A stretch of 32,323 nucleotides of DNA, from assembly GCA_035454825.1 (NCBI GenBank), contig DATIGG010000192.1, positions 1 through 32,323 of the forward strand, read 5' to 3'. The translations under genes were made by a program, and so were the position numbers. Position 1 is the first letter of the stretch. Each line of letters opens with the position of its first letter. The stretch comes from Thermodesulfobacteriota bacterium. Lineage in GTDB: Bacteria > Desulfobacterota > BSN033 > UBA1163. Shown here one piece after another: positions 1,877 through 16,799 of this stretch. Below the pieces are notes generated by a model that had not been told where the DNA came from, did not search any database, and saw nothing but the letters and a program-made list of their open reading frames with translations.

Positions 1877-2863
1877 TTGAAGAGTGAAAACATTAAACCT
1901 TTCAGAAACATTTTGATTAGGCTCTCGCTGGTTGCGATTGGAGCTGCCTTTTCTCTCCTTCTAAGCCTCATTCCTTCCATTGCCGAAAACCATCAGTTCC
2001 CGGGTGAATACGGAGAAGTTATCCACCGATCCAATGAAAAAAGCCCAAATCAGCTTTTTATTATTGGAATGAGCCACAGAGATTCTCTAACCCGTCTTAA
2101 CGGAAACAGAACTTCACGGGTGCAGGCGGAAGTTTATAAAATCGGCGACTGGCTCGTCCATGATCAGGGATTACAACTTCTTCTGCCGGAAGGCTTCTTC
2201 TCGAAGACACCTGCCAGATTGCAGGAAAAGAAGGTCAAAACCAAAGCGGAGAACGGAAGCAAATGCGGCACCGACCTGTCAGACATGAGAGCAATCGAAG
2301 AGAGACTCTCTGACAACAATATTTTTGTCAATGCTGAGATGCTGTTGAACGAAAGACATCACATGCGGATCAGACAGATAGAGGACGAGAAGTCCTATGA
2401 GGCTGCTCGAAGCAGTGTCCAGAAGCTGGTCAATTGCGGGAACAATTCAAGGGATTATCTGGCCGTGAAATCAGAACTGAACTACCTGCAGGAAAAAAGG
2501 ACAGCAGCCATGCTCCAGCGGATACCCGGGGTGATCGATGAAGAGTTCCGGCAGGGAACGATCATAGCGAGAAAAGCCCTTTTCACAATCGGCATGTCTC
2601 ATCTCCATAAAATCATCGAGTACTTAAACAAGGGTCGAATAAAAATTTTTTCTCCATTAATAGCTTCGAATGAGAGCGAAGATTACATTGCCGACGTGAA
2701 CTTGCTCAAAGAAGATTTTGGTATCTCCATTGTCATTCCAAGAATGTTAGCGAATGATCAGAAAATTCTCGAAATGAACAAACTGGATAAAATCATATCG
2801 CGGTCGAGAAATATGTCTACGATGATGGATTTAGCCCTTCAACCTAATCTAACCAGCAATTAA
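1877..2863 (+). CDS. hypothetical secreted or membrane-anchored protein with two G-M-S-H motifs (possibly Tiki/TraB/GumN/ChaN-like)
   Basis: 328-aa ORF in a visibly AT-rich stretch. There is an N-terminal hydrophobic segment (LIRLSLVAIGAAFSLLLSLIPSIA). FIIGMSHRD lies near the N-terminus and FTIGMSHLHKI near the C-terminus. The only available start is TTG and I see no clear Shine-Dalgarno, so the start is uncertain. Confidence 0.5.
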   Translation: MKSENIKPFRNILIRLSLVAIGAAFSLLLSLIPSIAENHQFPGEYGEVIHRSNEKSPNQLFIIGMSHRDSLTRLNGNRTSRVQAEVYKIGDWLVHDQGLQLLLPEGFFSKTPARLQEKKVKTKAENGSKCGTDLSDMRAIEERLSDNNIFVNAEMLLNERHHMRIRQIEDEKSYEAARSSVQKLVNCGNNSRDYLAVKSELNYLQEKRTAAMLQRIPGVIDEEFRQGTIIARKALFTIGMSHLHKIIEYLNKGRIKIFSPLIASNESEDYIADVNLLKEDFGISIVIPRMLANDQKILEMNKLDKIISRSRNMSTMMDLALQPNLTSN

Positions 2864-4197: not shown

Positions 4198-4321
4198 CTT
4201 TTCCTCCTCTCGACTCTATTGAGCTGTATTAGTCACTCACACTTATTATAAAGCCTAAACAACTTCAAAGAAAGAACGAAGAAAAATGGAGGGGAATTCC
4301 CTCAGTTACACCGATGTGTTC

Positions 4322-5593
4322 CTATTTTCCTTTCGTGTGGATTTTGACGTAGGTGGAACTGGCTTTGGGCATCACAGCCACAAGAGGGGGGGTGACATAC
4401 TTCGCACTTATTCTTTCGAAGGCCTCCCGGAATGTTTTGACCGGCAGGGTCATCAGGGTTCGGCTTAATTCTTCCTCGACGGATGAATAAAGGTGAACCT
4501 TCGCTTTTATTAATGAGCGACACCAGAGAAAGGCCTTATGGTCGCCCATCCTAAAGGTTTCGTTTCTAAAATGTTCGATAACCTCCTGGGGGCTCCTGTT
4601 TTTTGCCATCATCCGGTAAAAGGCTTCATCTCCGTGGCCATCCGGACACTCCGCAAAAAAGAAGATATCGCCACCTTGCCGGACGAGGGGAGTGACATGG
4701 GCTAAGGCCTTTTGAGCCTGGTAGATATTGATATCTTTGGGATATCCTCCAGGAGAGGCAAGGACCACATCATATTCTTTCGAAGATTTTGTTTCATAGA
4801 TCGTTCTGCAGAATTCGCTTCCGATTCGTTCGACCTCTATGGGATCTCCACAAAAAATCTTGACGATCCCATTCGTCTCGTTCAGAACCGCATTGACTAC
4901 CCAATGAACGCCTATCATCCTTCCGATCTCTTCAATATCCTGACGCACCGGATTATTCCGAATTTCTCCGACCACAGCTTGAGGTTGAAAGAGCATGGAA
5001 TGGTTGGCTTCGATCGTCTGCAATCCAGCCAGACCGATGGCTGCCCCCTTAACCCCACCTGTATAGCCCACAAACTGGTGGGGATCAATCAGGCCGATGA
5101 CGATACGAAGGTCAGCCTGGTGAAAAATAGGATTTACAAAGACAGGGGTTCCCCGGACGGTATTTCCCAAAAATTTCAGGTCCCTCAGTTTGGCATCGTG
5201 AGCAACGACTGAATATTTTCTTAAAATTTCAGGGGACAGGAGATTTGGAAAACGCGACGCTGCCATTGGGGGATGAAGGCCCGAGGCAATCAGGATCCAA
5301 ATGGCAGAGGGGGCGATTCCTATTCTGTCAAGCTGTTCAAAGATGGGAGGGAGGATCAGGTGATAAGGGATCAGTCTTGTTTCATCACTGATGGCAATGG
5401 AAGCGGATTGGACTCCGGAAAAATTGTCGAGGGACCTGTCTCCGAGAGGATTCTGGAGGCTTTGAAGGATTTCTCTCTGGGGATCCTCTGTCAAAAGAAC
5501 AGAGCTGGGCCGGAAGTAATCCGGCTCCCAGCCCAGGGGAAGATCAAAGGATATCTTCCCTTTTCCATAAGGAAGTTCGAGATGAGTTGTCAC
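4322..5593 (-). CDS. LarA-family (nickel-pincer-nucleotide dependent) 2-hydroxyacid racemase/epimerase
   Basis: 423 aa. ISDETRLIP, IASGLHPPM, DPHQFVGYTGGVKGAAIGLAG..TIEANHS and GGYPKDINIYQAQKAL match the positions of the LarA catalytic His residues, the cofactor-tethering Lys and the Ni-ligand His. GTG start 2 nt after the comA stop. Confidence 0.8.
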   Translation of the reverse strand: MTTHLELPYGKGKISFDLPLGWEPDYFRPSSVLLTEDPQREILQSLQNPLGDRSLDNFSGVQSASIAISDETRLIPYHLILPPIFEQLDRIGIAPSAIWILIASGLHPPMAASRFPNLLSPEILRKYSVVAHDAKLRDLKFLGNTVRGTPVFVNPIFHQADLRIVIGLIDPHQFVGYTGGVKGAAIGLAGLQTIEANHSMLFQPQAVVGEIRNNPVRQDIEEIGRMIGVHWVVNAVLNETNGIVKIFCGDPIEVERIGSEFCRTIYETKSSKEYDVVLASPGGYPKDINIYQAQKALAHVTPLVRQGGDIFFFAECPDGHGDEAFYRMMAKNRSPQEVIEHFRNETFRMGDHKAFLWCRSLIKAKVHLYSSVEEELSRTLMTLPVKTFREAFERISAKYVTPPLVAVMPKASSTYVKIHTKGK

Positions 5594-5595
5594 TC

Positions 5596-6411
5596 TTATT
5601 TTTTATATTTGGGATTGGCCGAAAAGGCCTGTTTCAACGTGTCGCCACGGAGACCGTTACGCAAAGCCTCAAGGGCCAGGATGTCTTCAGGAGGAACGTT
5701 TCCCAGATTCACATTCACGCCAAAGCGCTGAATGAGAAACTGTTGCTGATTTTTAATGGGGGCTTCCCACTCAAGCTTGGTGATGTCATCGACACCACTG
5801 ATAATGGCCTCCACCTCATCAAGCTTAGGTTTTCCATCTTTGTCGTAGATACCCACACCTTTGCCGGCCTCCCGGGCCTCAACGATGACCTTGTAGGAGC
5901 CGTTGGCCAAGTCTGCAGCAATCTCCTCGTGCATCTTGGTGGCAGCAACCTTTTCATCGGGGTCTTTCTTCCCAACCTCTGAAACCACCATGAATCCCAT
6001 GTCCACAGCTCGCCTGATGCAATCGGCCCGGGTCTTCAGATCGATCTCAATCGTTCCGTCTGAAAATTCGATGGCATTGAATCCCAATTCCTTGCACCGC
6101 TTGAGATATTTAGCATAGGTCCCCTGCCAAACAGAGACCTCCAAAAACGTTCCCCCCGGACAGAGCCAGATATCGTAGTCCTGAACCAATTCCACTTTCT
6201 CGGCGAGATAGTCGAGGTCGAGGAAGGCGCTGGTCCCGAAGGTCAGTTTGATGAAATCGATCACATCCCCGGCAGAATCAAGCAGGTCCTGGGTCGCATG
6301 CAGACCCAGACCCTTGTCAATGATCATGGTGATCCCTTCCTTCCGTGGCTTGGTTGACCGCCCGGGGACGGGCATTTCAAAGACTCCGTCAAATGCTTTT
6401 ACACGACTCAT
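5596..6411 (-). CDS. comA: (2R)-phospho-3-sulfolactate synthase (ComA) family protein
   Basis: 271 aa. KPRKEGITMIIDKGLG, DFIKLTFGTSA, CPGGTFLE, GFNAIEFSDGTIEI, VVSEVGKKDPD, EAREAGKGVGIYD, EAPIKNQQQ and LRGDT follow the ComA TIM-barrel pattern. The start lies 1 nt after the upstream stop. Confidence 0.85.
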   Translation of the reverse strand: MSRVKAFDGVFEMPVPGRSTKPRKEGITMIIDKGLGLHATQDLLDSAGDVIDFIKLTFGTSAFLDLDYLAEKVELVQDYDIWLCPGGTFLEVSVWQGTYAKYLKRCKELGFNAIEFSDGTIEIDLKTRADCIRRAVDMGFMVVSEVGKKDPDEKVAATKMHEEIAADLANGSYKVIVEAREAGKGVGIYDKDGKPKLDEVEAIISGVDDITKLEWEAPIKNQQQFLIQRFGVNVNLGNVPPEDILALEALRNGLRGDTLKQAFSANPKYKK

Positions 6412-6412
6412 G

Positions 6413-7387
6413 TCAGATTCCCTCCATGCAGTTTTTTGCGCCGGCCAAGACAGACTTAACCGGATTTAAGGCAACTTTTTCAACAAAATGGGTCATTGTC
6501 TGGAGACGTCGCTTCATCAACTCAGGTGTATCGAGACCTTCGATCGGGATCACATCATAGAGAATCACGGGAGAAGCAAATTTTTCCGTTGCATTATCAA
6601 AGAGAAGTTTTACGATCTTCTCTTTCCGGGTGATCGTTTTGACCACCGGGGTGTCGCGGCCCGATTCAATCTTGGCATCCACAATGGTCACCCGGGGATT
6701 GAGGTATCTGGGCTTCGCAGCGATGTGGCTCATGTCGATGGCGATTTTGTGGCTCCAGATATCGGATACACTCGGAATCTCAACCTTCAGTTTCTTATTC
6801 GCATCTGGGAAATCATAAATCAATGTTCCCAGTCGGATGTTATCATAGAGGGAGCCCATATAGAACTCGTATCCCTGCTGTGTGAACCGGAAGTGGGTCA
6901 TTTCCGTGCTGAAGATCTGCCAGTCGTCTTCAAGTCCCTTGAGAAGAAAGACTGTTTTTCCGGCACCCGCTCCTCCAACGACCAGGAGGAGGGTATTTCG
7001 TGAAGGGCTGAACATCGAGCTAGCATGAAAACTGTAAACCTGATGATGGCGCTCCAGCGTGACCAGAAGATATTTGAAGAAAAGCCCCAGGTTTCCGAAG
7101 AGCGAATAACGATTGTCGGAGCACTCCTTTTCGTAGCGGGTGAAATCCCCGGCTGCAAAGAGGACTTTCTCTGTGACTTTAACCTGCGGCTCAACGCTGG
7201 GATCGTCAATGGCAATGAAATAGGCATCGAGATCTTCGTGATACGGGATGGGTTCGATGGAGTGAATGTCGGTGAGCAGAGACTCCAAGATCTGTCCTTC
7301 GAAATACCGGGGCTCTGTGATCAGTTTTTCATTATTTGAAACGATGCCCATTCGGGCTTGGGCAATTCTTACAGCTCGTCTATGCAT
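6413..7387 (-). CDS. P-loop protein resembling HPr-kinase/PEPCK-fold kinases (HprK-related kinase-like); function unknown
   Basis: 324 aa. FHASSMFSPSRNTLLLVVGGAGAGKTVFLLKGL resembles the (L)HA(S/A)..-G.sG.GK(S/T) core of HprK-related kinases. It is the first gene of a tightly packed three-gene unit with comA and the larA-like gene. Confidence 0.55.
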   Translation of the reverse strand: MHRRAVRIAQARMGIVSNNEKLITEPRYFEGQILESLLTDIHSIEPIPYHEDLDAYFIAIDDPSVEPQVKVTEKVLFAAGDFTRYEKECSDNRYSLFGNLGLFFKYLLVTLERHHQVYSFHASSMFSPSRNTLLLVVGGAGAGKTVFLLKGLEDDWQIFSTEMTHFRFTQQGYEFYMGSLYDNIRLGTLIYDFPDANKKLKVEIPSVSDIWSHKIAIDMSHIAAKPRYLNPRVTIVDAKIESGRDTPVVKTITRKEKIVKLLFDNATEKFASPVILYDVIPIEGLDTPELMKRRLQTMTHFVEKVALNPVKSVLAGAKNCMEGI

Positions 7388-7443
7388 AGGACCGTAATCC
7401 CCTCCGTTTGGACGAAAAAAGGTAACCCCTCAGTCTTGGGACT

Positions 7444-7605
7444 GGAACAGGGTAGTCTCCCCTCCGAAGCCTTGAAAAGCGGGTCATTACAGATAGGTTA
7501 ACCGAGGGATTTTGCTGAAAGGACCTTTTTAAGGCCATCTACCCCATGGCTCATCGCTCAAAAATGTGCCGCTTCAAGTCTTCTCCGGAGAGACCACCCT
7601 GTTCC
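7444..7605. repeat. long imperfect palindrome in the leader of the kinase-comA-larA operon
   Basis: ggaacagggtagtctc (7444-7459) pairs with gagaccaccctgttcc (7590-7605): 15 Watson-Crick pairs and one G-U out of 16 in the minus-strand RNA. Further inner complementary blocks follow (gaagacttg/caaggcttc, aagcgg/ccgctt). Confidence 0.6.
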
Positions 7606-7651
7606 CGCGGATGAATCTCCGACCGTCTGAGGGAATACAAAAAAAAGTTTT

Positions 7652-8320
7652 TCAACCCGACTCAATATTCTTCAATGCCGACTCTCTGACATTTCGAATG
7701 TGCTCCCTCATCAGAGACTCCGCCATTGAAGGGTCTTTTTTTTCCATGGCTTCAATGATATTAAAATGTTCGACCAAAGACTGTTCAGGTCTCCCTTCAT
7801 GGGTAACCGTTTGGAGGCGAAGCATCTGGACATGGTCGTTGAGGGTATTCATGAGATTGATGAGCAGGTTATTTTTACTTGTCTTGATGACAAAGTTGTG
7901 AAATTCGAGGTCAGCGTGGGTGTACTCCTTTGATCGGTCCCTGATATTCGATTCGGAAAAATCTCTAAAAAGGGACCTCATCTGCTCGATCGCCTGCTTG
8001 CTGACATTGTCTGCGGCCAGTCTTGCCGCAAACCCTTCAAGGGCTTCCCTGACCATCATGATTTCGGTTATTTTTTCTCTGGAGTGCTTAACAACAAAGG
8101 CGCCCCGTCTGGGGATGATCTTGACAATGCCTTCATTCTCCAGGCGACATAGTGTCTCCCGAATCGGAGTCCGGCTGACTCCCAACTGTTTGGCGACGGC
8201 CTCTTCATCGATCTTTTCGCCGGGAAGGATCTCTTGAAAGATGATCGACTTCTTGAGGATTTCGTAAACCCTGTTTCGAAGGTTCGGTGATTCAATCAAT
8301 TTTTCGATTCCGAGTTCCAT
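7652..8320 (-). CDS. GntR-family transcriptional regulator (FadR/FCD-type C-terminal domain)
   Basis: 222 aa. Winged-HTH segment VAKQLGVSRTPIRETLCRLENEGIVKIIPRRGAFV followed by an all-helical FCD-like domain. Confidence 0.9.
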   Translation of the reverse strand: MELGIEKLIESPNLRNRVYEILKKSIIFQEILPGEKIDEEAVAKQLGVSRTPIRETLCRLENEGIVKIIPRRGAFVVKHSREKITEIMMVREALEGFAARLAADNVSKQAIEQMRSLFRDFSESNIRDRSKEYTHADLEFHNFVIKTSKNNLLINLMNTLNDHVQMLRLQTVTHEGRPEQSLVEHFNIIEAMEKKDPSMAESLMREHIRNVRESALKNIESG

Positions 8321-8325
8321 AATTT

Positions 8326-8351
8326 TGTATAATGTATGCCATATTACAAAA
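8326..8351. promoter_or_regulatory. candidate GntR operator (TGTATAATGTAT-N3-ATATTACAAAA) at the gntR1 / tauE divergent region
   Basis: The 12-mer TGTATAATGTAT is identical to 9481-9492 upstream of the second GntR gene. The arms TTGTA/TACAA are inverted. It starts 6 nt from the gntR1 start codon. Confidence 0.4.
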
Positions 8352-8438
8352 TCCGGTTCAATGATTTTAGGAAAAATTTGTTGACAAAACTTTTTGATGA
8401 GTTATTACGGTCTCAAAATTGGCATTGACATAGTCGTT

Positions 8439-8557
8439 GGAAAATCTCCCCTCGCCCCTCTCCTTCGACAAGCTCAGGATGGTGAGCCTCGTCGAACCCT
8501 TTGTCAAATCCCGCGGAACGCGGGACTCTCTTTGGCAAAGGGAGGCGAGGAGGGATT
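8439..8557. repeat. composite REP-like hairpin element
   Basis: The outer imperfect inverted arms are aaaatctcccctcgcccctc and gaggcgaggagggatttt. The inner hairpins are ttcgac...gtcgaa and tcccgcg-gaa-cgcggga. It contains the 19-mer shared with 2953-2971. Confidence 0.6.
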
Positions 8558-8660
8558 TTGCCAATCAATGCCTTCATTATTATGAGATTGTTAATATTTC
8601 AAAAAAGATAAAATCGATACAGGACATGTGGGTGGTAGTAGTGAAGAAGGGCGAGATTTG

Positions 8661-9386
8661 ATGAGTTTCCTCTTCTTTGTTCTAATGATCGTGGCCTTTT
8701 TGGCAGGTGTCCTTAAGAGCGGATTTGGCATTGGTGCCGGAATTTTCTTAACACCCATGCTCGCCCTGGTGATGGATCCGAAGGAGGCCGTAGTGGTGGT
8801 TGCGCCCATAATGCTCTTTACGGATATCACTGCTGTTTACCAATACTGGCGCCGGTGGAATTTGAAGGATGTTTTCGCTCTTGCTCCTCCTTGCCTGTTG
8901 GGTGCGATCGCCGGGGTATTCCTCTTAAATTGGTTTACTCCAGACATTGCACGCCGTGCCATCGGGTTTATTGGACTGGTCTATGTAGGGCAAGAAATAG
9001 TGCGAATGGGATTTCGGATGCAGCCTTTCACTCCCAGTCTCATTCGAAGTGTGCCCATCGGTATCGTTGGAGGCGTTGCGTCAGCACTGGCAAATTCGGG
9101 AGGAGTCTTTATCTCTACCTATTTTGCCGGACGTCTCGATAAAGAATATTTTGTGGGAACGCTCGTCGTTGTCTTTTTATGGTTAAATGTTACAAAGGTG
9201 GGAATGTTTACAGGATTAGGGCTCCTTAATCAGAAATTGTGGGTGACTGAATTTTCCCTCATCCCTCTCATGTTTCTGGGAAGCTTGGCGGGGAAATGGG
9301 TCAATACTCGTATTGAGGAAAAGCAATTTAAACGATGGATTTTTGGGTTGATCGTTGTGGCATGCATCAAACTGATCTTTTTTTAA
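8661..9386 (+). CDS. TauE/SafE (DUF81) family anion exporter-type membrane protein
   Basis: Polytopic. MSFLFFVLMIVAFLAGVLKSGFGIGAGIFLTPML and a second GG-rich half (GIVGGVASALANSGGV) are typical of the family. The ATG at 8661 is preferred over the track's GTG at 8628. Confidence 0.8.
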   Translation: MSFLFFVLMIVAFLAGVLKSGFGIGAGIFLTPMLALVMDPKEAVVVVAPIMLFTDITAVYQYWRRWNLKDVFALAPPCLLGAIAGVFLLNWFTPDIARRAIGFIGLVYVGQEIVRMGFRMQPFTPSLIRSVPIGIVGGVASALANSGGVFISTYFAGRLDKEYFVGTLVVVFLWLNVTKVGMFTGLGLLNQKLWVTEFSLIPLMFLGSLAGKWVNTRIEEKQFKRWIFGLIVVACIKLIFF

Positions 9387-9466
9387 AGCCTTTCCTTGAT
9401 CTCCCCCGATAAAGTTTGACCCCTAACGATACATGACGACGCGTTGTTGCAGGGTAAAAAAAATGA

Positions 9467-9495
9467 TTGACATCAAAAAATGTATAATGTATAAA
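9467..9495 (+). promoter_or_regulatory. sigma70-like promoter of the second GntR gene
   Basis: TTGACA (9467-9472), 17-nt spacer, TATAAA (9490-9495), about 27 nt upstream of the ATG at 9522. Confidence 0.45.
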
Positions 9496-9504
9496 ATATA
9501 CAAA
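9481..9504. promoter_or_regulatory. candidate GntR operator overlapping the -10 element
   Basis: TGTATA (9481-9486) and TATACA (9497-9502) are perfect inverted arms. The site shares the 12-mer TGTATAATGTAT with 8326-8337. Confidence 0.45.
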
Positions 9505-9521
9505 TTGGATGGCAGAAAAGC

Positions 9522-10211
9522 ATGCAGCGAATCGAACATGCCAACCTCTCTTTAGTCAACCAGGCCTACCGGGAACTGAAACGGATCATCCTGGAGCATC
9601 AGATCCCTCAGGGCGGAAAACTGAACGAAGGCGAATTGGCCTCAGCCCTGGGCATTAGCCGAACACCCGTCAGGGAGGCTATCAATCGCCTCGAGAAAGA
9701 AGGTCTTGTCGAAATCTTTCCCCAGCGGGGCGCCTTTGTCGTCCGGTTTTCTGAAAAAGACATCAACGAACTATTCTTGATTCGGGAAAACCTCGAAGGC
9801 CTTGCGGCCTACCTGGCAGCCGAAAAAATGACGGGGAATGATCTGGTAAAACTTGAATCATGCGTCCAGGGATTTAACGAGCCCTACAGCAAAAAGGATA
9901 TCCAGCGGTATGCCCGGGAGGATTTCAAATTTCATCAGATGATCGTCATGGTCTCTGATGCCCGGCGGTTGATCAACCTGATTTCTACCCTCCATGACCA
10001 TATCCGTATCTTTCGCCTTACTACCAAGGGATTATCCAGTCGGATGAGTACCTCCCTGGCCGAACATCAGAATCTCATTGAGGCCCTTCGAATGAGGGAC
10101 GCAGAAGAAGCGGAACGTCAGATGAGGCAGCATATCCGCCACGTCCGTCACGGCGTCATGGAAAATATTAAATTCTTCCTGGGGAATGGGGAAGGAATTC
10201 TTTCTAAATAA
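9522..10211 (+). CDS. GntR-family transcriptional regulator (FCD-type), paralog of 7652-8320
   Basis: 229 aa. LASALGISRTPVREAINRLEKEGLVEIFPQRGAFV. The C-terminal helices align by eye with the other GntR (LHDHIRIFRL vs LNDHVQMLRL, AEHQNLIEAL vs VEHFNIIEAM). Confidence 0.9.
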   Translation: MQRIEHANLSLVNQAYRELKRIILEHQIPQGGKLNEGELASALGISRTPVREAINRLEKEGLVEIFPQRGAFVVRFSEKDINELFLIRENLEGLAAYLAAEKMTGNDLVKLESCVQGFNEPYSKKDIQRYAREDFKFHQMIVMVSDARRLINLISTLHDHIRIFRLTTKGLSSRMSTSLAEHQNLIEALRMRDAEEAERQMRQHIRHVRHGVMENIKFFLGNGEGILSK

Positions 10212-10225
10212 AGACATCCTATAAA

Positions 10226-10260
10226 GGTATAATCCAGAATTCTAACCTGAGGATTATACC
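10226..10260. promoter_or_regulatory. perfect 10-bp inverted repeat GGTATAATCC-N15-GGATTATACC immediately upstream of the hydro-lyase genes
   Basis: Read directly from the sequence. It contains the same GTATAAT half-site as the two operator candidates above. The right arm abuts the SD (AGGAGGGAAAGGA-ATG). Confidence 0.5.
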
Positions 10261-10273
10261 AGGAGGGAAAGGA

Positions 10274-11155
10274 ATGGCACCGTTCACCTATCCACTCGTC
10301 GAAGAGACAGCTAAGGAGCTTTATATCCGTGCCCTCAAGATCTTGCCGCCCGACGTGCGGGAGGCCTTAAAGAAGGCTTACAACAAGGAAACAAACCCAA
10401 CGGGTAAGGAAACCCTTAAGACCATACTGCAAAATGTGGAGGTTGCCGACAAGCAGAATATGCTCATCTGCCAGGACACAGGGCTTCCCATTTATATGGT
10501 TAAGATCGGCAGCCGGTTTCCGGTGGATGGGGCCCGGATTGCCTCGGCCTTAAAGGAAGGGGCAAAAAGGGCTACGCTTGAACATCCGTTTCGAGGAAGT
10601 TCCACCCATCCCGTCACCCGGGTGAATCCTCAGACGAGCGTGGGAGATGGATTGCCGATCATCTACTGGGAATTCGTCCCCGAGAATGACTACTTGGAGA
10701 TCCTCATGATTCCTAAAGGGTCCGGCTCTGAGAACATGAGCGCCATGAAAATGTTCATCCCCGCCGACGGGATTGCTGCCGTAAAGAAATTCGTTATTGA
10801 TACCGTTCTGCAATCTGGGGCAAACCCCTGTCCTCCAGGAGTTATAGGCGTAGGAATTGGGGGTACGGCAGACCTGGTGGGGAAGTTAGCCAAGGAGGCC
10901 ATTGCCAGGCCCGTAGGTTCCCATAACCACGATCCTTTCTTTGCGAAGATGGAAGATGAGCTCTATGAAGCCATTAATTCCCTTGGCTTCGGCCCCATGG
11001 GCCTTGGAGGAACCGTGTCCACCCTGGCTGTTCACATCGAATGGGCTTATACCCACATTACCCTGAATCCTGTGGCCGTGAATACACAGTGCTGGCCTGC
11101 CCGAAGGGCAAGAGCAAAGATTTATCCCGACGGGAGAGTGGAGTATGGGTTTTAA
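10274..11155 (+). CDS. Fe-S hydro-lyase alpha subunit (class I fumarate hydratase / L-tartrate dehydratase alpha type)
   Basis: 293 aa. LICQDTGLPIYMVKIG, MIPKGSGSENMS and GVIGVGIGGT are typical of the N-terminal (alpha) catalytic module. Confidence 0.85.
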   Translation: MAPFTYPLVEETAKELYIRALKILPPDVREALKKAYNKETNPTGKETLKTILQNVEVADKQNMLICQDTGLPIYMVKIGSRFPVDGARIASALKEGAKRATLEHPFRGSSTHPVTRVNPQTSVGDGLPIIYWEFVPENDYLEILMIPKGSGSENMSAMKMFIPADGIAAVKKFVIDTVLQSGANPCPPGVIGVGIGGTADLVGKLAKEAIARPVGSHNHDPFFAKMEDELYEAINSLGFGPMGLGGTVSTLAVHIEWAYTHITLNPVAVNTQCWPARRARAKIYPDGRVEYGF

Positions 11156-11220
11156 GGGAAATAGGCAACAGGCAATAGGCAAAACAATTAACCATAGACG
11201 GTTGACGACAATCAGACAGG

Positions 11221-11826
11221 ATGGGGGAAGCCATGGCAACGTATCATTTGATGACTCCATTAACAGAAGAAGTAGTAAGAAAATTGTATGTCCGTGATGG
11301 CGTGTTTCTTAATGGAACGATTTTTGGCATCCGGGATCTTACACAGATTCGCATCTTTGATCATAAGAAGGATCCGCCAGTTTCCCTTCAGGGAGCGGCT
11401 TGTATTCATACCGCTCCAAGCCTTAAAAAGGTTGGAGATCGCTGGGAGAAGATCTGCGTGGGCACGACGACGAGCGGGCGGATGGACCGTTTTACCCCGG
11501 GACTGATGGAAAAGTACGGAGTGAGAGCGATCATCGGCAAGGGTGGCCAGTACCAGGCAAGTCTGGAGGCGATGAAAAAGTTCGGAGGTTGTTATTTAGC
11601 GATTGTGGGTGGGGCGGCTGCACTTGAGACGAATCAGATCGTTGAGGTGGAGAAGGTCTATTGGGAAGATATTCATCCTGAGGCTCTCTATCAATTCAAG
11701 GTCAGGGATTTCGGACCTCTGATTGTAGCCATGGATTCCCATGGAAATCACCTTTATTACGAAGTGAGAGCAGAGGCGGAGAAGAGACTTCCGGAGATCT
11801 ATAAACGGTTGGGAATAACAAGATAG
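11221..11826 (+). CDS. Fe-S hydro-lyase beta subunit (class I fumarate hydratase / tartrate dehydratase beta type)
   Basis: About 200 aa. GTIFGIRDLTQIRIF, HTAPSL.., GTTTSGRMD, IIGKGG and AIVGGAAAL are typical of the beta module. An alternative start at 11233 has a better-placed GGGGGAAG. Confidence 0.85.
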   Translation: MGEAMATYHLMTPLTEEVVRKLYVRDGVFLNGTIFGIRDLTQIRIFDHKKDPPVSLQGAACIHTAPSLKKVGDRWEKICVGTTTSGRMDRFTPGLMEKYGVRAIIGKGGQYQASLEAMKKFGGCYLAIVGGAAALETNQIVEVEKVYWEDIHPEALYQFKVRDFGPLIVAMDSHGNHLYYEVRAEAEKRLPEIYKRLGITR

Positions 11827-11879
11827 CGATTAATCTTATAAAATTTTGAAGCAATTATTTATGAGAACTGATTGTAGTC

Positions 11880-12000
11880 AGACAAATAAACCAACCATCC
11901 CCACCCCCACCCTGGCCCTCCCCTGAAGGGGAGGGAAATCGCTATATTCCTCCACCTTCAAGGGGGAGGTCAGGAGGGGGATGGGGCATTTGGGTTTGAT
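11880..12000. repeat. REP-like G/C-run hairpin element
   Basis: Perfect 8-bp stem ccctcccc (11916-11923) / ggggaggg (11928-11935) with a tgaa loop. A second hairpin is cctcc...ggagg. The flanking copies catcccc... / ...ggggatgggg are inverted. Confidence 0.55.
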
Positions 12001-12035
12001 TTAAATTTTGAAATTTGAAATTAGGGTTTCGGGTA

Positions 12036-12830
12036 ATGGTACTCAGTTTTCTTCTTGGGATTCTGCCATACATCACCGTTGCCATATTTCTTTCCGGTAT
12101 TCTGTTCCGGTTCTGGGTCTGGATCCGGACACCCGTTCCCCTAAGAATCGTCACGACCCCTGGTCCAAAAACCAGGATCGGCGTTGCCGGGCGATTAATC
12201 GGTGATATTCTCTGGTTCCCAAATCTGCTCAATGCGGATCAACCTCTCTGGGTTGCCGGATGGTGCTTCCACGTCCTCTTGTGGCTCGTACTCCTCAGGC
12301 ATTTGAGATACTTTCTCTATCCTGTACCCGGATGGATTGCAGGGATTCAGACGATCGGACTCTATGCAGGTTATCTCATCCCGATTCCTTTAGGCTTCCT
12401 GCTTGCTCGCAGGTTCCTTATCGACCGGACCCTTTATATCTCCATCCTGGGAGATTATTTCGTGCTGTTTCTTCTTCTGTCCATCACCTTAAGCGGAACC
12501 CTGCTTCACCTCTTTTTCAGGACCTATCTCATCGACGTGAAAGCCCTCATCAACGGACTGATCCATTTCAAATACTTGGCCCCGGAGACGCACTGGCTTT
12601 TTATCCTGCACTTCCTCCTGGTTATGGGCTTGCTGGTCTATTTCCCGTTTAGCAAGCTAGTGCATGGAGGAGGACTCATTTTAAGTCCAACCCGCAACCA
12701 GAGAGCAAACTTTGAAAAACGGTTCATCAACCCCTGGGATTTTTCTGTGAGCTATAGCGATCAAAATCTCTCCACGCCCGAGAAATACCGTGAAGCGCTG
12801 GTCGAGGCCAAAGAAGGAGAGAGAGAATGA
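12036..12830 (+). CDS. NarI / DsrM / HdrE-like membrane b-type cytochrome subunit
   Basis: About 264 aa with 5-6 predicted TM helices (MVLSFLLGILPYITVAIFLSGILFRFWVW...). His residues sit in the helices (FHVLLWLVLLRHLRY, LLHLF, ILHFLLV). The stop overlaps the next start (ATGA at 12827-12830). ATG 12036 is preferred over the track's TTG at 12015. Confidence 0.75.
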   Translation: MVLSFLLGILPYITVAIFLSGILFRFWVWIRTPVPLRIVTTPGPKTRIGVAGRLIGDILWFPNLLNADQPLWVAGWCFHVLLWLVLLRHLRYFLYPVPGWIAGIQTIGLYAGYLIPIPLGFLLARRFLIDRTLYISILGDYFVLFLLLSITLSGTLLHLFFRTYLIDVKALINGLIHFKYLAPETHWLFILHFLLVMGLLVYFPFSKLVHGGGLILSPTRNQRANFEKRFINPWDFSVSYSDQNLSTPEKYREALVEAKEGERE

Positions 12831-14230
12831 GGATGCCGATTCCGGTCCCGGAAGTCAGAATTGATGCTTCGAGTCATCTGAAGTGCCATCCAGCCAAGGA
12901 AAAGGACATGGTCAAAATCGACCTGCCCAAAGAGCGCGTCAGGGATTGGAAAGAGGCCATGCTGAAGAAGATGGCCGAGGTCCTCGATCGATACCGTTCG
13001 GTTCGACTCTTTCTCGACATTTGTGTAAAATGCGGCGCCTGTGCGGATAAGTGCCAGTTCTTTCTGGGGACCGGAGATCCGAAGAACATGCCTGTCGCAA
13101 GGGCCGATCTTTTAAGAAAAGTCTATAAACGTTACTTCACGCTGGGCGGAAAGATCTGGGGAAGGGCCAATGAGGCAGAAGAGCTGAATGAGAAAGTGAT
13201 TGAAGAATGGATGACCTACTTTTACCAGTGCAGCGAGTGCCGACGCTGCTCTGTCTTCTGCCCTTATGGGATCGATACGGCAGAGATCACCATGGCTGCA
13301 CGGGAGATCTTGGCCGCAGCCGGCTTCGCGACAAAGTATGTCACCGAAGTTGTGTCAAAGGTCTATGACACCGGGAATAACCTCGGCATCTGGCCGGCAG
13401 CATGGAAGGATATGTGCGCATTCATGGAAGAAGACCAGAAGGACCTTGAAGGAATTGACATCAAGTTTCCGGTCGATGCCATGGGCGCAGAGGTTCTTCT
13501 CATTCCTCCTTCTGCGGATATCTTCGTCAACACCAATACCATAATCGGTTATGCCAAGATGTTCCATGCTGCAGGCATCTCCTGGACGACCAGCACTTAC
13601 TGCAACGAAGGTGGAAATTTCGGTCTCTTCCTCAATTATGCAAACCTGAAGAAAATCAACAACCGGATCATAGAAGCAGCCCGTCAGCTCAAGGTCAAGA
13701 AGATTTATTGGGGCGAATGCGGGCACGCCTGGAGAGCGGGCTTGGCTTATACCCCCACCTTGAGCGGATCCATGGACTTTCTGGAGATCCCCTACCCGGT
13801 CCACCTCTGCGATCTGACCTGGAGCCTGATTTCGAAGGGGGCGTTTAAGATCGATCAATCAGCCAATGACGAGTTTATAGTCACCTATCATGATCCCTGC
13901 AATGTTGCCCGGGCGGCAGGATATGTTGAGTCTCCCAGGAATATCCTCAAGGCAACGTGCAATCATTTTGTGGAGATGCATCCGGACACGATACGAGAAA
14001 AGACATACTGTTGTGGCGGGGGCGGAGGGCTCCTTGCCGATGAGATCATGGAGATCCGCATGGCAGGAGGGAAGCCCCGGGCAGAAGCCTGCCGGGCAAG
14101 CGGAGCAAATTTCATGGCCACCCTATGCGCCATCTGTAAAGCGAACTTGCCAGAGGTGATGAAACACCACAAGGTGAATTGCCAGATCGGTGGCGTTCAT
14201 GACTTATTGGGAAGGGCCATTATTCTTTGA
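12827..14230 (+). CDS. HdrD / DsrK / TmcB-like iron-sulfur CCG-domain oxidoreductase
   Basis: 467 aa. Two ferredoxin-type motifs (CVKCGACADKCQF; CSECRRCSVFCPYG) and C-terminal CCG-type cysteines (YHDPCNVAR, TYCCGGGGG, CAICKANL). Confidence 0.85.
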   Translation: MRMPIPVPEVRIDASSHLKCHPAKEKDMVKIDLPKERVRDWKEAMLKKMAEVLDRYRSVRLFLDICVKCGACADKCQFFLGTGDPKNMPVARADLLRKVYKRYFTLGGKIWGRANEAEELNEKVIEEWMTYFYQCSECRRCSVFCPYGIDTAEITMAAREILAAAGFATKYVTEVVSKVYDTGNNLGIWPAAWKDMCAFMEEDQKDLEGIDIKFPVDAMGAEVLLIPPSADIFVNTNTIIGYAKMFHAAGISWTTSTYCNEGGNFGLFLNYANLKKINNRIIEAARQLKVKKIYWGECGHAWRAGLAYTPTLSGSMDFLEIPYPVHLCDLTWSLISKGAFKIDQSANDEFIVTYHDPCNVARAAGYVESPRNILKATCNHFVEMHPDTIREKTYCCGGGGGLLADEIMEIRMAGGKPRAEACRASGANFMATLCAICKANLPEVMKHHKVNCQIGGVHDLLGRAIIL

Positions 14231-14244
14231 ATGCGGATTGTCGA

Positions 14245-14592
14245 ATGCGAATTGCACCCTTTCTATTTCTGTGCATCCTTTTCTTGAACTGTCTTCTCGG
14301 TTGTCAGCAGGTTCAGAAGCCGGAGTTGAAAGGAGAGGGACCTCTTGCGGTTGTTGTGCCCCGGGGGTCGACTGCCCCTGAGTACCACGCTCCCATAGAG
14401 CGCTGGCGATCCTTTCATATGGAGGCGATCAACCAGGGAGACTTTACGCAGAGAGAGTGTGTGCTCTGTCACAACCCCAAAACAGGCTGCAATAAATGCC
14501 ATCAATATATAGGAGCAAAAGAGGTCTCTGTGCCTGAAGCCAATCTGTACTGGCCACCTCTCTCTCCTCCCCCTTTGACGCATAAGCGCTAA
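14245..14592 (+). CDS. small dihaem c-type cytochrome, predicted lipoprotein
   Basis: Signal peptide plus lipobox MRIAPFLFLCILFLNCLLG|C. Two CxxCH motifs sit five residues apart (CVLCHNPKTGCNKCH). Its last codons lie inside the left terminal repeat of the element at 14581-14913. Confidence 0.7.
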   Translation: MRIAPFLFLCILFLNCLLGCQQVQKPELKGEGPLAVVVPRGSTAPEYHAPIERWRSFHMEAINQGDFTQRECVLCHNPKTGCNKCHQYIGAKEVSVPEANLYWPPLSPPPLTHKR

Positions 14593-14913
14593 CTTATGAA
14601 CATCGAGTAGATTTGTGTGAAGATCCCGATAGGGATATTTGATAATAGACCGGCGATTTATCGCGGGTATCATGAACCGTAAGAGAAAGTCCCGTAGGGA
14701 CCAATGAAATAGGGATCGCGAATGACAAATTCCTATATCAGCCTTTATATGCACATCATTTTCAATACAAAGGGACGACCAGAGACGGCGAGATTCGGAA
14801 CGTCCCGAAGGGACTTGATTTTTAATCTTATTTCCACCCGGCGATAAATCGCCGGGCTATTGTCACAGGTACGCTCTCACGGGCATTGGCATCGGTTTAA
14901 GTTAGCGCTTATG
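14581..14913. mobile_element. MITE-like palindromic element carrying a stub of an IS200/RAYT-type (Y1) transposase gene
   Basis: Perfect 16-bp terminal inverted repeats cataagcgctaactta (14581-14596) / taagttagcgcttatg (14898-14913). Nested inverted pairs are gataatagaccggcgatttatcgc (14641-14664) / gcgataaatcgccgggctattgtc (14841-14864) and gtcccgtagggac / gtcccgaagggac. Confidence 0.6.
14722..14847 (+). pseudogene. remnant of an IS200-like / REP-associated tyrosine transposase (N-terminal ~19 codons only)
   Basis: MTNSYISLYMHIIFNTKGR matches the conserved N-terminal strand (..LY.HI.F.TK.R) of Y1 transposases. The reading frame then runs into REP sequence and stops after 41 codons. Confidence 0.5.
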
Positions 14914-14965
14914 CCCGCCAGGGGAGAGGGGTAATTAAGATTATTTTCCAGATAAGGAAAATTCA

Positions 14966-15439
14966 ATGATTGAGGGATCCGCGAAGCCAATGCCAGAAAA
15001 GAGCTCCCAGGTAGTCTCTGACATCCAGACCAGCCGTAGGACGCTCATGAAAGGGCTTCTTGGCTTTGTTGGAGCCCTGGGTCTGGGGAGTTTCGTGTAC
15101 GGGGCATACCGGTTCCTGGCTCCAGATGCTGGGGCTTATGCATCTGTTGAGATTTCTATCAATGACATCCCCACAGGAGGAACTTACCCGTTCCAGTTTG
15201 GCACTTCTCCCGGCCTTCTCCTCAGAGCAGAGGATGGGAGCTTGAAGGCCTTTTCACTGGTCTGCACTCATCTTGCATGCACAGTTAACTGGAATCCAGA
15301 GAAAAGGACCTTTTATTGTCCCTGCCACGACGGCCTTTTTGATGCCGAGGGTCACGTTATCAGCGGGCCTCCGCCTGCACCGCTGGAGCGGCTAAAGGTT
15401 GAGGTGAGGGGCGACAAAGTAATTGTTGGAGCTGCATAA
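14966..15439 (+). CDS. Rieske [2Fe-2S] subunit of a cytochrome bc / b6f-type complex, Tat-exported
   Basis: Twin-arginine signal SRRTLMKGLLGFVGALGLG. Rieske boxes CTHLAC and CPCHDG. SD is AAGGAAA. Confidence 0.9.
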   Translation: MIEGSAKPMPEKSSQVVSDIQTSRRTLMKGLLGFVGALGLGSFVYGAYRFLAPDAGAYASVEISINDIPTGGTYPFQFGTSPGLLLRAEDGSLKAFSLVCTHLACTVNWNPEKRTFYCPCHDGLFDAEGHVISGPPPAPLERLKVEVRGDKVIVGAA

Positions 15440-15446
15440 TTACAAA

Positions 15447-16799
15447 ATGGAGAAGGGACCTCAAAACAAAGTGAATGGAACTCGGATGAGAGAAGAGGTT
15501 CCTTCCTTTGACTTTATGACCCATTCCATCCGGGGGCTTTTTGGGCTCACCGTCTTCTCAGGAACCTTTCTCGCAGTCCATTATATCCCTGCCTTTAGTC
15601 AGGCTTTCTCCTCCGTGGTGCGGCTGAATGAGGAGGTGCCGTTTGGTTGGATGGCCCGGCGCCTCCACGCTGCAGGAGGAAGCCTTTTACTGATACTGTT
15701 TTTGTTTCATCTCTTGAGGGTTTTCTACTCCGGTGCGTACAAGGTGCGTCCCCGTATTGCCTGGGTCCTCGAAATCCTGTTGCTCTTTTACGCACTCTGG
15801 ACGAATTTCACCGGATCGGTCCTTCCCCTTTCTCAGGCTGCGTATTGGGGAGCAACCACGATTCTTTCAAACGTTTCATCCTTGCCCTGGGTCGGAAGGG
15901 TGATCGTTGAGTTTATCAGGGGTGGAAAGGAATTGGGCGGGGCTGCACTCGTCCGGTTTTACAGCATGCACGTAGGATTTTCAGTTCTGATTGGTTTGTT
16001 TCTTTTCTTTTACTATCGAATGGGATTGACCGGGAGAAAAGAGGGAAATGGTGCTTCGCCAGCTCAACATTTTGCAGTCGTTTCTGCAGTGACTGTTTTG
16101 CTTCTGGTCCTCACTACATTTGCGCCTGGATGGTTTATGGATTCGCTCAAAGAAGCAGCCAATCCAGCCCTCAATCCGGAGCGCATCTCTTTCCCCTGGT
16201 ATTTTCTTTTTTTGACTGAGACCCTTCCTCTCTTCAGCGCAGCTTATCCGTTCTGGTCCCTGCTTCTACTGGTGATCGTTCTTCTCTTGCTCTTTTTTCT
16301 TCCCTATCTGGATCGGAATCCCGAGCAGGGTCTACTGATCCGCCCCTTTGCCATGGCCCTTGCGGCGGCTTTCCTGGTTGCAGGCATCTATTTCAGCCTT
16401 GTTGGTTCCGCGAATGCCCGTTACGGTCGAGGAGTAGTTGTTCCCAATGACGGCCTGTCTCCGGTTGGAATGCGCGGAGCAAGGGTATTTGCGGAGAGGA
16501 ATTGTGCTTACTGCCATCAGATCGCAGGTAAGGGAGGAAGGCGGCAAGGACCGGATCTGACTGTAGTCACCTGGCGCGGCCGTTCCCGGGACTGGATCCA
16601 GCGCTTCATCTATAACGCCCGACTTTACCAGCCAGGCACTGCCATGCCCCGCTATGAGATTCCGCTCGATGACCTGGAGGCCTTGAGCGCTTATCTTTTA
16701 TCCCTGGACCCACGGAAAAAAACTTTTAGAATGGTTGATCGAACCCATTTCATGGATGTGAGCTTTTATCTCGAATCTCAGGCGGAAGGAAGAAGATGA
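15447..16799 (+). CDS. cytochrome b (b + subunit IV equivalent) fused to a C-terminal monohaem class-I cytochrome c domain
   Basis: Helix-B motif RRLHAAGGSLLLILFLFHLLR, the RFYSMH helix-D start and a PEWY-region equivalent ISFPWYFLF. The C-terminal domain has CAYCH ... GPDL ... GTAMP. The stop overlaps the sdhA-like start (ATGA at 16796-16799). Confidence 0.85.
   Translation: MEKGPQNKVNGTRMREEVPSFDFMTHSIRGLFGLTVFSGTFLAVHYIPAFSQAFSSVVRLNEEVPFGWMARRLHAAGGSLLLILFLFHLLRVFYSGAYKVRPRIAWVLEILLLFYALWTNFTGSVLPLSQAAYWGATTILSNVSSLPWVGRVIVEFIRGGKELGGAALVRFYSMHVGFSVLIGLFLFFYYRMGLTGRKEGNGASPAQHFAVVSAVTVLLLVLTTFAPGWFMDSLKEAANPALNPERISFPWYFLFLTETLPLFSAAYPFWSLLLLVIVLLLLFFLPYLDRNPEQGLLIRPFAMALAAAFLVAGIYFSLVGSANARYGRGVVVPNDGLSPVGMRGARVFAERNCAYCHQIAGKGGRRQGPDLTVVTWRGRSRDWIQRFIYNARLYQPGTAMPRYEIPLDDLEALSAYLLSLDPRKKTFRMVDRTHFMDVSFYLESQAEGRR

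Follow-up and report, generated by a model that had tools for sequence, protein, structure and literature searches.

Can an operon of an uncultured anaerobe cleave the carbon-sulfur bond of 3-sulfolactate by means of an enzyme known from biosynthesis? This question is raised by three minus-strand genes in a 32,323-nt stretch of DNA from a Thermodesulfobacteriota bacterium (contig DATIGG010000192.1 of the GenBank assembly GCA_035454825.1), which is called the window below; the genes encode a P-loop protein (PL), a homolog of the phosphosulfolactate-forming enzyme ComA and a homolog of the racemase LarA. A preliminary description of the sequence had proposed that a kinase phosphorylates sulfolactate, that ComA then runs in reverse and that the LarA homolog supplies the right enantiomer, and our comparative results, namely the pairing of PL with ComA, the fold of PL, the neighbouring genes with pyruvate kinase or PPDK among them, and the assignment of the racemase to LarAH5, agree with this proposal. 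In our judgement the evidence is evenly balanced on whether the operon would encode an undescribed ATP-primed C-S cleavage of 3-sulfolactate, in which a sulfolactate 2-kinase is followed by ComA in reverse to give phosphoenolpyruvate (PEP) and sulfite. The broader claim is held more tentatively, just short of an even balance: this would be a fourth mechanistic class of C3-sulfonate desulfonation in uncultured anaerobes and in soil and groundwater phyla (Thermodesulfobacteriota, Methylomirabilota/Rokubacteria and Chloroflexota), with a 2-hydroxyacid kinase of the PEP carboxykinase (PEPCK) fold acting on (R)-sulfolactate, a catabolic ComA yielding PEP, and the LarAH5 proteins, including Mar1, as nickel-pincer sulfolactate racemases serving both this route and SuyAB.

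Pairing of PL with ComA across genomes

A locus scan of one genome per GTDB species with an 11-sequence PL alignment returned 80 loci, with one more added through exact-protein look-up. When these related loci were searched by tblastn with the proteins of the window, ComA was the next gene after PL, in the same orientation, in 81 of 81, and the pairing holds even where PL identity is only 36-38%, so that the arrangement is far from chance. The pair spans at least four phyla, and its hosts are Thermodesulfobacteriota/Syntrophales, Methylomirabilota/Rokubacteria, Chloroflexota (including Dehalococcoidales and Anaerolineae), and one metagenome-assembled genome (MAG) each of Armatimonadota and Sphingomonadaceae.

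A hidden Markov model census of the neighbour families covers 82 PL-ComA loci. A LarA homolog is present in 25 of the 82, a D-2-hydroxyacid dehydrogenase in 20, PPDK in 14 (directly upstream of the pair), TauE in 11, a Tct transporter in 10, FumA in 7 and an Ldh_2 protein in 6. When PPDK and pyruvate kinase are taken together, one or the other stands directly upstream of PL-ComA in 17 loci.

Behind the pair of one locus (L091, 909-4536), where PL is 36% identical, comes a transketolase that is split into an N-terminal and a C-terminal subunit and is reminiscent of the sulfo-TK pathway with its two-subunit sulfofructose transketolase.

Predicted fold of PL

PL has zero matches at E 0.01 or better in Pfam and NCBIfam, and a phmmer search against the PDB sequences returned as its sole match a spurious Rab P-loop (E 1.4). 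A PL profile against the same sequences reached HprK (E 0.12) and PEPCK (E 0.27) in the P-loop region only, i.e., generic Walker A matches. The family is annotated solely as "hypothetical", and consists of 590 clusters at 90% identity, chiefly from MAGs of Thermodesulfobacteriota/Deltaproteobacteria, or approximately 150 representatives at 50% identity among 1.8 billion proteins. In a comparison of 59 diverse members, the invariant residues are limited to H121, G138, G143 and K144; the Walker A pattern GxxGxGK[ST] is kept throughout, and the invariant His (H121) lies 17 residues upstream of the motif. PEPCK and HPr kinase/phosphorylase (HprK/P) have a His at a comparable position.

The AlphaFold2 model of PL, calculated from the 59-member alignment, has a mean predicted local distance difference test score of 97.3. 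When it was compared with the PDB by Foldseek, the best 50 matches listed were ATP- or GTP-dependent PEPCK, with the exception of one respiratory-supercomplex chain, with E down to 1.6e-8, a probability of 1.00, about 370 aligned columns at approximately 10% identity, and TM-scores normalised to the query of 0.44-0.53. Since the fold matches but the PEPCK and Hpr_kinase sequence models do not, PL, as modelled, is a separate and new sequence family of the PEPCK-type kinase fold. The label "HprK/PEPCK-fold-like" in the preliminary description is thus right by structure and unsupported by the sequence-family models.

PL therefore resembles PEPCK and HprK/P in its fold, Walker A motif and upstream His, and differs from them in its length of 324 residues, in its approximately 10% identity to PEPCK and in matching neither sequence model. 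A further difference would be the phosphate acceptor, which is an enolate in PEPCK and a protein serine in HprK, and which in PL is proposed to be the 2-hydroxyl of a small acid; we propose that PL is an ATP-dependent (R)-sulfolactate 2-kinase.

More distant relatives of PL (19-34% identity) have no adjoining ComA and are coupled to 2-hydroxyacid dehydrogenases of the Ldh_2 family, or stand in clusters of LarA, GlcDF-like and 2-hydroxyacid dehydrogenase genes, which suggests that the PL family as a whole acts on 2-hydroxyacids. These distant members may be kinases for other 2-hydroxyacids. Their genes overlap or abut Ldh_2 genes or lie in a racemase cluster (L087, 347-2291; L092, 633-2538; L089, 860-12760), and one such cluster encodes two LarA homologs, GlcDF-like proteins, a DHDPS-like protein and 2-hydroxyacid dehydrogenases.

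The ComA homolog

The ComA homolog matches PF02679 with 299.7 bits (cut-off 25.2) over model positions 2-243 of 243, and it also passes the TIGR03849 equivalog model with 331 bits (cut-off 280). It matches ComA of Methanocaldococcus jannaschii (1QWG) with E 5.5e-59, and the EVGKK motif aligns, with conservation of its second Lys at chain position 137. Lys137 was reportedly proposed as the general acid of ComA by Wise et al. (2003). We propose that the homolog would run in reverse, as a phosphosulfolactate sulfo-lyase which yields PEP and sulfite. ComA yields (R)-phosphosulfolactate, and synthesis is the sole direction demonstrated for ComA enzymes (PMC9457059).

A ComA homolog is shared with the archaeal coenzyme M route (ComA-ComB-ComC of M. 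jannaschii) and with YitD/YitC of Bacillus subtilis, and here as well (2R)-phosphosulfolactate would be the intermediate. Unlike in the archaeal route, the partner of ComA is a P-loop kinase-fold protein and not the ComB phosphatase, the context is catabolic, the proposed flux is opposite, and ComB, ComC and ComDE are not in the window. ComB (PF04029) is also not among the top 25 of the 175 recurrent neighbour families that were listed, and no use of coenzyme M is known in the hosts of the pair. The Xcb coenzyme M route of Xanthobacter autotrophicus Py2 likewise has a bacterial ComA homolog (XcbB) and phosphosulfolactate, and its enzyme XcbC demonstrates that phosphosulfolactate can undergo enzymatic beta-elimination (PMC9457059). 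In that route phosphate is eliminated with formation of sulfoacrylate, whereas here sulfite would leave with formation of PEP; the window is also without Xcb genes of the aspartase/fumarase superfamily, the adjoining fumarase being of the unrelated class-I Fe-S type.

The LarAH5 racemase

The LarA homolog of the window matches Lar_N (6e-47) and LarA_C (6e-19), and it passes the equivalog model of LarAH5 (NF052595) with 504 bits against a cut-off of 462, while its scores for the LarAH6 model (389, cut-off 500) and for the LarA model (274, cut-off 460) are below the cut-off. All tested LarA homologs beside PL-ComA (from Chloroflexota, Anaerolineae, Syntrophales and another Thermodesulfobacteriota lineage) pass the LarAH5 cut-off as well, with 514-560 bits; homologs beside other pairs are 36-44% identical to the window protein. 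In comparison with Mar1, the characterised LarAH5 protein of Desulfitobacterium hafniense, 18 of 20 signature residues are identical at an overall identity of 41% (window D R H H Q F K H I Y Q Q K G H K F L W R; Mar1 D R H H Q F K H A Y Q Q K G H K Y L W R). The catalytic and cofactor residues are all kept, as had already been noticed in the preliminary description, i.e., D, the substrate-carboxylate R, the two catalytic His, the Lys that tethers the nickel-pincer nucleotide (NPN), the Ni-binding His, Q and K, together with the Gln after the catalytic His that is specific to group 5. Among the scanned open reading frames (ORFs) of the window, none is larB, larC or larE.

Mar1 has a KM for L-malate of 55 mM and a kcat/KM of 0.39 s-1 mM-1, and Mar2 has a KM for malate of 0.38 mM and a kcat/KM of 185 s-1 mM-1 (PMC7583248). 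The authors of that study doubted that malate is the native substrate of Mar1 and suggested tartrate, and they found LarA group 5 wholly associated with COG2721, "altronate dehydratase" (Table S1, PMC7583248). Regarding this association, the neighbourhoods of close Mar1 relatives (L082, 4521-8757; L083, 4284-8556) were observed as follows. In Dehalobacterium formicoaceticum, genes for SAF (98 aa) and GD_AH (384 aa) proteins are followed by LarAH5, a second pair of SAF and GD_AH, TctBAC and GntR/FCD, and in Acididesulfobacillus acetoxydans the order is GntR/FCD, transporter, SAF and GD_AH, LarAH5 and a ComC-like Ldh_2 protein. By tblastn, the GD_AH proteins beside Firmicutes LarAH5 have 60-62% identity with the larger protein of a UxaA-family pair that is split into two subunits. 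In Cupriavidus pinatubonensis this pair comes after hpsN, hpsO and an hpsP-like gene, and in Paracoccus versutus it has a GntR regulator on one side and a sulfate exporter on the other. These are the classical suyAB contexts, as reportedly described by Mayer et al. (2010) and Rein et al. (2005).

Two independent genomic settings thus connect LarAH5 with sulfolactate, one beside SuyAB-type genes in Firmicutes and one beside PL-ComA. A search of the literature for a pairing of "SuyB" with "altronate dehydratase" found none. SuyAB uses the R-enantiomer and sulfoglycolysis typically gives the S-enantiomer (PMC13436972). As SuyAB and ComA need or make the R form and sulfoglycolysis gives the S form, a sulfolactate racemase fits both settings, and sulfolactate is probably the real substrate of LarAH5. 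The window racemase and the "malate racemase" Mar1 belong to the same NCBIfam equivalog family and share the group-specific Gln, and they differ in that the former adjoins PL-ComA and the relatives of the latter adjoin SuyAB-like genes.

Gene neighbourhoods in other lineages

For gene calling in the neighbourhoods a codon model was used that had PL and ComA as its seed genes, and the products were clustered and the recurrent families annotated. In the Thermodesulfobacteriota type, PL-ComA is preceded by aldehyde:ferredoxin oxidoreductase, CoA-transferase alpha and beta subunits, D-2-hydroxyacid dehydrogenase and PPDK (TIGR01828, 1355 bits), and is followed by TctC, TctB and TctA. The Syntrophales type has a four-subunit 2-oxoacid:ferredoxin oxidoreductase and a D-2-hydroxyacid dehydrogenase upstream of the pair, and an aspartate-type aminotransferase, a polar amino-acid ABC importer and a pyridoxal phosphate (PALP) enzyme facing it, a gene set that would suit the uptake of cysteate and its conversion through sulfopyruvate to sulfolactate. 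The window type, common to L001 and L067, consists of GntR, PL, ComA and LarAH5, facing TauE, GntR and FumAB, in part with a 2-hydroxyacid dehydrogenase in front of TauE.

The Rokubacteria/Methylomirabilota type continues after PL and ComA with TauE, an FeS/NrfD fusion, a molybdopterin oxidoreductase of 943 aa that has no twin-arginine (Tat) signal, and a thiamine diphosphate (ThDP) enzyme of the PRK08327 type, a more distant relative of Xsc. The sulfite dehydrogenase SoeABC is built in this way, as a Mo/FeS/NrfD complex that has no signal and faces the cytoplasm, and the module is a candidate for a Soe-like cytoplasmic sulfite dehydrogenase. It was seen in L030, L031, L038, L039, L044, L050, L055, L061 and L066 (at approximately 9800-15200 in full-length 17-kb loci, e.g., L055). 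In some loci of this type (L033, L062 and L064) pyruvate kinase stands directly upstream of PL. The Chloroflexota type has PL, ComA and LarAH5, or else an Ldh_2 protein close by, the best NCBIfam match of which is L-sulfolactate dehydrogenase. Seven PL-ComA loci have a transporter of the family PF03601, to which the "sulfate exporter" adjoining SuyAB in Paracoccus (SuyZ-type) also belongs. The preliminary description had treated TauE and SuyZ as one type, which does not hold, as SuyZ is PF03601 and TauE is PF01925.

Proposed route

To put the parts together, sulfolactate would enter the cell via the TauE-family permease, or via TctBAC encoded elsewhere in the window, and the LarAH5 racemase would convert (S)-sulfolactate, the enantiomer of sulfoglycolysis, to (R)-sulfolactate. 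PL would then phosphorylate the 2-hydroxyl of (R)-sulfolactate with ATP, giving (2R)-phospho-3-sulfolactate, from which the ComA homolog, in a reversal of its known Michael addition, would release sulfite and PEP by beta-elimination. The PEP would be converted to pyruvate and ATP by pyruvate kinase or PPDK, with the ATP thus regained making the route ATP-neutral, or it would go directly to gluconeogenesis or to a C4 branch. The lyase step would be pulled by the removal of sulfite, through dissimilatory reduction in the DsrMK-carrying Thermodesulfobacteriota host or through the cytoplasmic Soe-like molybdoenzyme in Rokubacteria. The two GntR/FCD paralogs would control the divergent units via a shared palindromic operator. 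That PEP is the product is argued from the pyruvate kinase or PPDK directly upstream of the pair in 17 loci. The logic is similar to that of glycerate 2-kinase and enolase, where phosphorylation of the 2-hydroxyl is also followed by beta-elimination at C3 to PEP; in contrast, the leaving group here would be sulfite and not water, and both enzymes are from unrelated families. TauE had at first been proposed as a sulfite exporter, and for a probable sulfite-respiring host the import of sulfonate or the export of sulfate is equally likely.

Several points weigh against this route. The kinase activity of PL, the substrates and the role of TauE are inferred, and the substrate of TauE is not predictable from its sequence; the reversal of ComA is a proposal, and the racemisation of malate is the only measured activity of LarAH5. 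All PL-ComA loci are from MAGs. At least one of TauE, LarAH5, D-2-hydroxyacid dehydrogenase and Ldh_2 is held by 51 of the 82 loci, and the other 31 hold none, many of the contigs being short or having housekeeping neighbours. The Ldh_2 neighbours in Chloroflexota score below the cut-off for sulfolactate dehydrogenase (383 bits vs. 500). PEPCK, the nearest fold, uses oxaloacetate and PEP and not a 2-hydroxyacid, so that PL might handle PEP itself. FumAB adjoins the pair in 8 loci of two phyla (including L020, L032, L038, L053, L072, L001 and L067) and an SdhA-type flavoprotein stands beside it in three, the order in L020 being FumAB, PL, ComA, SdhA; due to the fumarase, a C4-dicarboxylate reading stays alive. 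Finally, by a rough estimate from standard free energies, the conversion of sulfolactate and ATP to PEP, sulfite and ADP is presumably uphill by approximately 10-20 kJ/mol under standard conditions, which means that efficient removal of sulfite would be needed (with sulfite at the micromolar level the reaction would be favourable), and that thermodynamics leave the synthetic direction possible.

Whether the fumarase is a member of the pathway is uncertain. It is possible that the pair was inserted into a cluster for the tricarboxylic acid cycle or fumarate respiration, that PEP is routed to the C4 branch, or that the fumarase and the Sdh-like enzymes use sulfonate analogues as substrates, with hydration of sulfoacrylate to sulfolactate and oxidation of 3-sulfopropionate to sulfoacrylate.

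Alternative explanations

It seems unlikely that the cluster is biosynthetic or detoxifying, with ComA adding sulfite to PEP and PL in place of ComB moving the phosphate to ADP, or to phosphate as in the phosphorylase reaction of HprK/P, and so conserving the energy; the sulfolactate formed would serve either as a sink for sulfite, with TauE as its exporter, or as the starting compound for cysteate, sulfolipid or a substance similar to coenzyme M. The demonstrated direction of ComA enzymes would suit this explanation, by our rough estimate the overall conversion of PEP, sulfite and ADP to sulfolactate and ATP is downhill, and the adjoining PPDK could equally supply PEP. Pyruvate kinase, however, is physiologically an irreversible consumer of PEP and cannot supply it, and it stands directly upstream of PL in three loci; the GntR regulators, the solute importers (Tct and amino-acid ABC) and the racemase are typical of catabolism; and the signal-less Soe-like molybdoenzyme of Rokubacteria fits the disposal of sulfite, not its supply. 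For these reasons, and because ComB is not in the window (nor were homologs of ComC, ComDE and Xcb found there), the catabolic direction is favoured. The transfer of phosphate from a secondary-alcohol ester to ADP is also unfavourable by itself. A phosphoesterase gene beside PL in some Chloroflexota, which would speak for synthesis, was considered as a substitute for ComB and rejected, as it is more likely part of a divergent histidine-biosynthesis block.

Improbable for other reasons is a substrate without sulfur, i.e., a C4-dicarboxylate or another 2-hydroxyacid (malate, tartrate), for which LarAH5 would feed fumarase and fumarate reductase, and PL with the ComA homolog would be a related kinase/lyase pair. 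Besides the fumarase and SdhA neighbours given above, this would agree with the TfrA-like SdhA, the SdhB and the Tct transporters of the window, with the fold of PL being that of an oxaloacetate/PEP enzyme, and with the in vitro racemisation of malate by LarAH5/Mar1 and the suggestion of tartrate by the Mar1 authors. The KM of Mar1 for malate is, however, the 55 mM already mentioned, and Firmicutes LarAH5 adjoins SuyAB. Additionally, the ComA homolog passes its equivalog cut-off, is close to the archaeal enzyme and keeps the Lys at 137; no chemistry other than with sulfite is known in the ComA family, and a carboxylate cannot replace sulfite as leaving group or nucleophile. Such a substrate would also leave TauE, the SuyZ-type exporter, the Soe-like complex, the Xsc-related ThDP enzyme and the sulfolactate-dehydrogenase-like Ldh_2 unexplained.

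Very unlikely, in our view, is that PL is a mini-PEPCK (e.g., oxaloacetate + ATP to PEP + CO2), or a regulatory or chaperone-like partner that gives or channels PEP to ComA: the top structural matches are indeed PEPCK in both domains, and the adjoining fumarase could supply oxaloacetate via malate, but PL has 324 aa against 510-600 aa of the matched PEPCK chains, the structural match is partial at the TM-scores and identity stated above, the PEPCK Pfam model does not match, the distant relatives pair with 2-hydroxyacid dehydrogenases and have no adjoining ComA, and the adjoining pyruvate kinase or PPDK already interconvert PEP and pyruvate. A coenzyme-M-like branch, which had been raised on account of "HdrDE-like" and thiol:fumarate-reductase-like genes nearby, was rejected, as these genes are of the DsrMK type and an Sdh/Frd flavoprotein, and the window has no homolog of ComB, ComC, ComDE or Xcb.

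Relation to known sulfolactate routes

The kinase and reverse ComA route, if correct, has much in common with the SuyAB pathway and its two-dehydrogenase "racemase" SlcC/ComC, known from Paracoccus pantotrophus, Chromohalobacter salexigens, Cupriavidus pinatubonensis and Desulfovibrio sp. DF1, with the transporters SlcHFG, a tripartite tricarboxylate transporter (TTT), or SuyZ. Common to both are the proposed substrate, the net reaction (to the C3 keto-acid level and sulfite) and the need for the (R)-enantiomer, and the accessory genes are also akin (GntR, transporters of the Tct or TauE/SuyZ type, and sulfolactate or sulfopyruvate dehydrogenases). Unlike SuyAB, cleavage would act on a 2-phosphate ester by the ComA TIM-barrel after a kinase step and would give PEP and not pyruvate, and a single NPN racemase would replace the two dehydrogenases.

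None of the scanned window ORFs encodes SAF/GD_AH (SuyAB), ComDE with Xsc, or CuyA, which places the cluster outside the described sulfolactate routes. In full-text searches of the literature we found no "sulfolactate kinase", no "sulfolactate racemase" and no ComA-based catabolic route, and a review of July 2026 gives as routes of C-S cleavage only SuyAB, Xsc, CuyA and the glycyl-radical enzymes, and states that S-to-R processing is needed (PMC13436972). The literature thus agrees with the preliminary description, which had placed the route outside the known pathways. What would be new here is the PL family and the reversed use of the biosynthetic ComA, as ComA and LarAH5 are members of known families.

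Layout and regulatory DNA of the window

The coordinates of the features are collected in Table 1. The ORF map and the Pfam matches confirm the minus-strand trio, with the coordinates unchanged from the preliminary description, and the GntR/FCD gene upstream of it; from the coordinates, the PL stop and the ComA start are 1 nt apart, and the ComA stop and the LarA-homolog start 2 nt. TauE and a second GntR gene do face the trio, the latter lying approximately 136 nt past the end that had been given for the cluster. The two regulators are paralogs (42% identical), each with an N-terminal GntR winged helix-turn-helix and a C-terminal FCD domain.

Table 1. Positions of genes and DNA elements in and around the operon (nt of the window).
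Feature	Position	Strand	Remarks
Terminator-like hairpin and T-rich tail	4289..4303	-	Just past the LarA-homolog stop codon; pattern scan only
LarA homolog (LarAH5-family NPN 2-hydroxyacid racemase), 423 aa	4322..5593	-	Lar_N, LarA_C, NF052595
ComA-family protein, 271 aa	5596..6411	-	PF02679, TIGR03849
PL, P-loop protein, 324 aa	6413..7387	-	Walker A GGAGAGKT
Imperfect inverted repeat, 33-nt arms, 82% complementary	7444..7605		In the 264-nt GntR1-PL intergenic region
GntR/FCD regulator 1 (GntR1)	7652..8320	-	GntR and FCD domains; upstream, first gene on operon strand
Palindromic operator-like site ATTTTGTATAATG-N5-CATATTACAAAAT	8322..8352		Between divergent GntR1 and TauE
TauE/SafE-family (TSUP) membrane transporter	8628..9386	+	PF01925, 129 bits, model positions 1-237/237; faces operon
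Second operator-like copy	9481..9504		Approximately 30 nt upstream of GntR2
GntR/FCD regulator 2 (GntR2)	9522..10211	+	GntR and FCD domains; faces operon
Perfect 10-bp inverted repeat GGTATAATCC-N15-GGATTATACC	10226..10260		Directly upstream of fumA; half-site resembles the GntR operator-like motif
Class-I (Fe-S) fumarate hydratase alpha	10274-11155	+	PF05681; two-subunit enzyme
Class-I (Fe-S) fumarate hydratase beta	11221-11826	+	PF05683; two-subunit enzyme

The hairpin behind the LarA homolog is the probable end of the operon; a promoter and terminator scan gave no enrichment over shuffles. The 12-mer TGTATAATGTAT has exactly two copies in the 32-kb window, one upstream of each GntR gene, the first of them within the palindrome at 8322..8352 and the second at 9481..9504, and when up to 2 mismatches are allowed, 5 copies are found versus 0.83 expected by chance. 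The inverted repeat before fumA, with its similar half-site, hints that the fumarase genes may share the regulon. The imperfect repeat between GntR1 and PL may be a repetitive element or an attenuator. Another 12-mer, GAGGGATTTTGC, is found at 7504 in this GntR1-PL region and again at 8550 in the GntR1/TauE region, beside a GC-rich palindromic stretch (8440-8560). A search of 7300-10300 against Rfam gave no credible RNA family.

The fumarase (10274..11826) scores 319 bits for NF004885 (cut-off 276). Beyond it, an unusual respiratory string on the plus strand (12015-19854) encodes DsrM-like, DsrK, Rieske, cytochrome b/c fusion, TfrA-like SdhA, a small ORF and SdhB, in this order. DsrK reaches 538 bits (cut-off 400), and with the DsrM-like gene it lies approximately 3 kb from the operon; the genes called "HdrDE-like" in the preliminary description are thus of the DsrMK type by profile, and the thiol:fumarate-reductase-like gene placed there about 3 kb away was recovered as the SdhA, the best match of which is the thiol:fumarate reductase TfrA (563 bits, below the cut-off). 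The stretch of fumarase, DsrM-like, Rieske and cytochrome b is kept in L001, and that of fumarase and DsrMK in L067. Directly 3' of sdhB, a 1201-aa ORF (19851-23456, plus strand) has zero Pfam and NCBIfam matches. TctB, TctA and two TctC genes of a TTT system follow and, past them, a gene for a protein with cupredoxin and CHRD domains (in all 23736-28262, plus strand, and 29716-31008, minus strand). TTT systems import sulfolactate in Chromohalobacter. Two other ORFs, 1877-2863 (plus strand, 328 aa) and 14263-14754 (minus strand, 163 aa), are without a Pfam match.

Significance

Sulfoquinovose, 2,3-dihydroxypropane-1-sulfonate and cysteate belong to the most abundant of all organosulfur compounds, and their breakdown has sulfolactate as a central intermediate. 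SuyAB, Xsc, CuyA and the glycyl-radical enzymes serve as marker genes for the organisms that mineralise sulfonates. As ComA is read as a marker of coenzyme M biosynthesis, such surveys would miss a kinase/ComA route, which appears in abundant uncultured lineages of sediment, groundwater and soil. If the proposal is true, the uncharacterised PL family would gain a function, an enzyme known from textbooks as a "synthase" would work catabolically, and PEP instead of pyruvate as the product would be an energetic advantage for anaerobes. It would also settle which substrate is native to the nickel-pincer racemases of the LarAH5 family.

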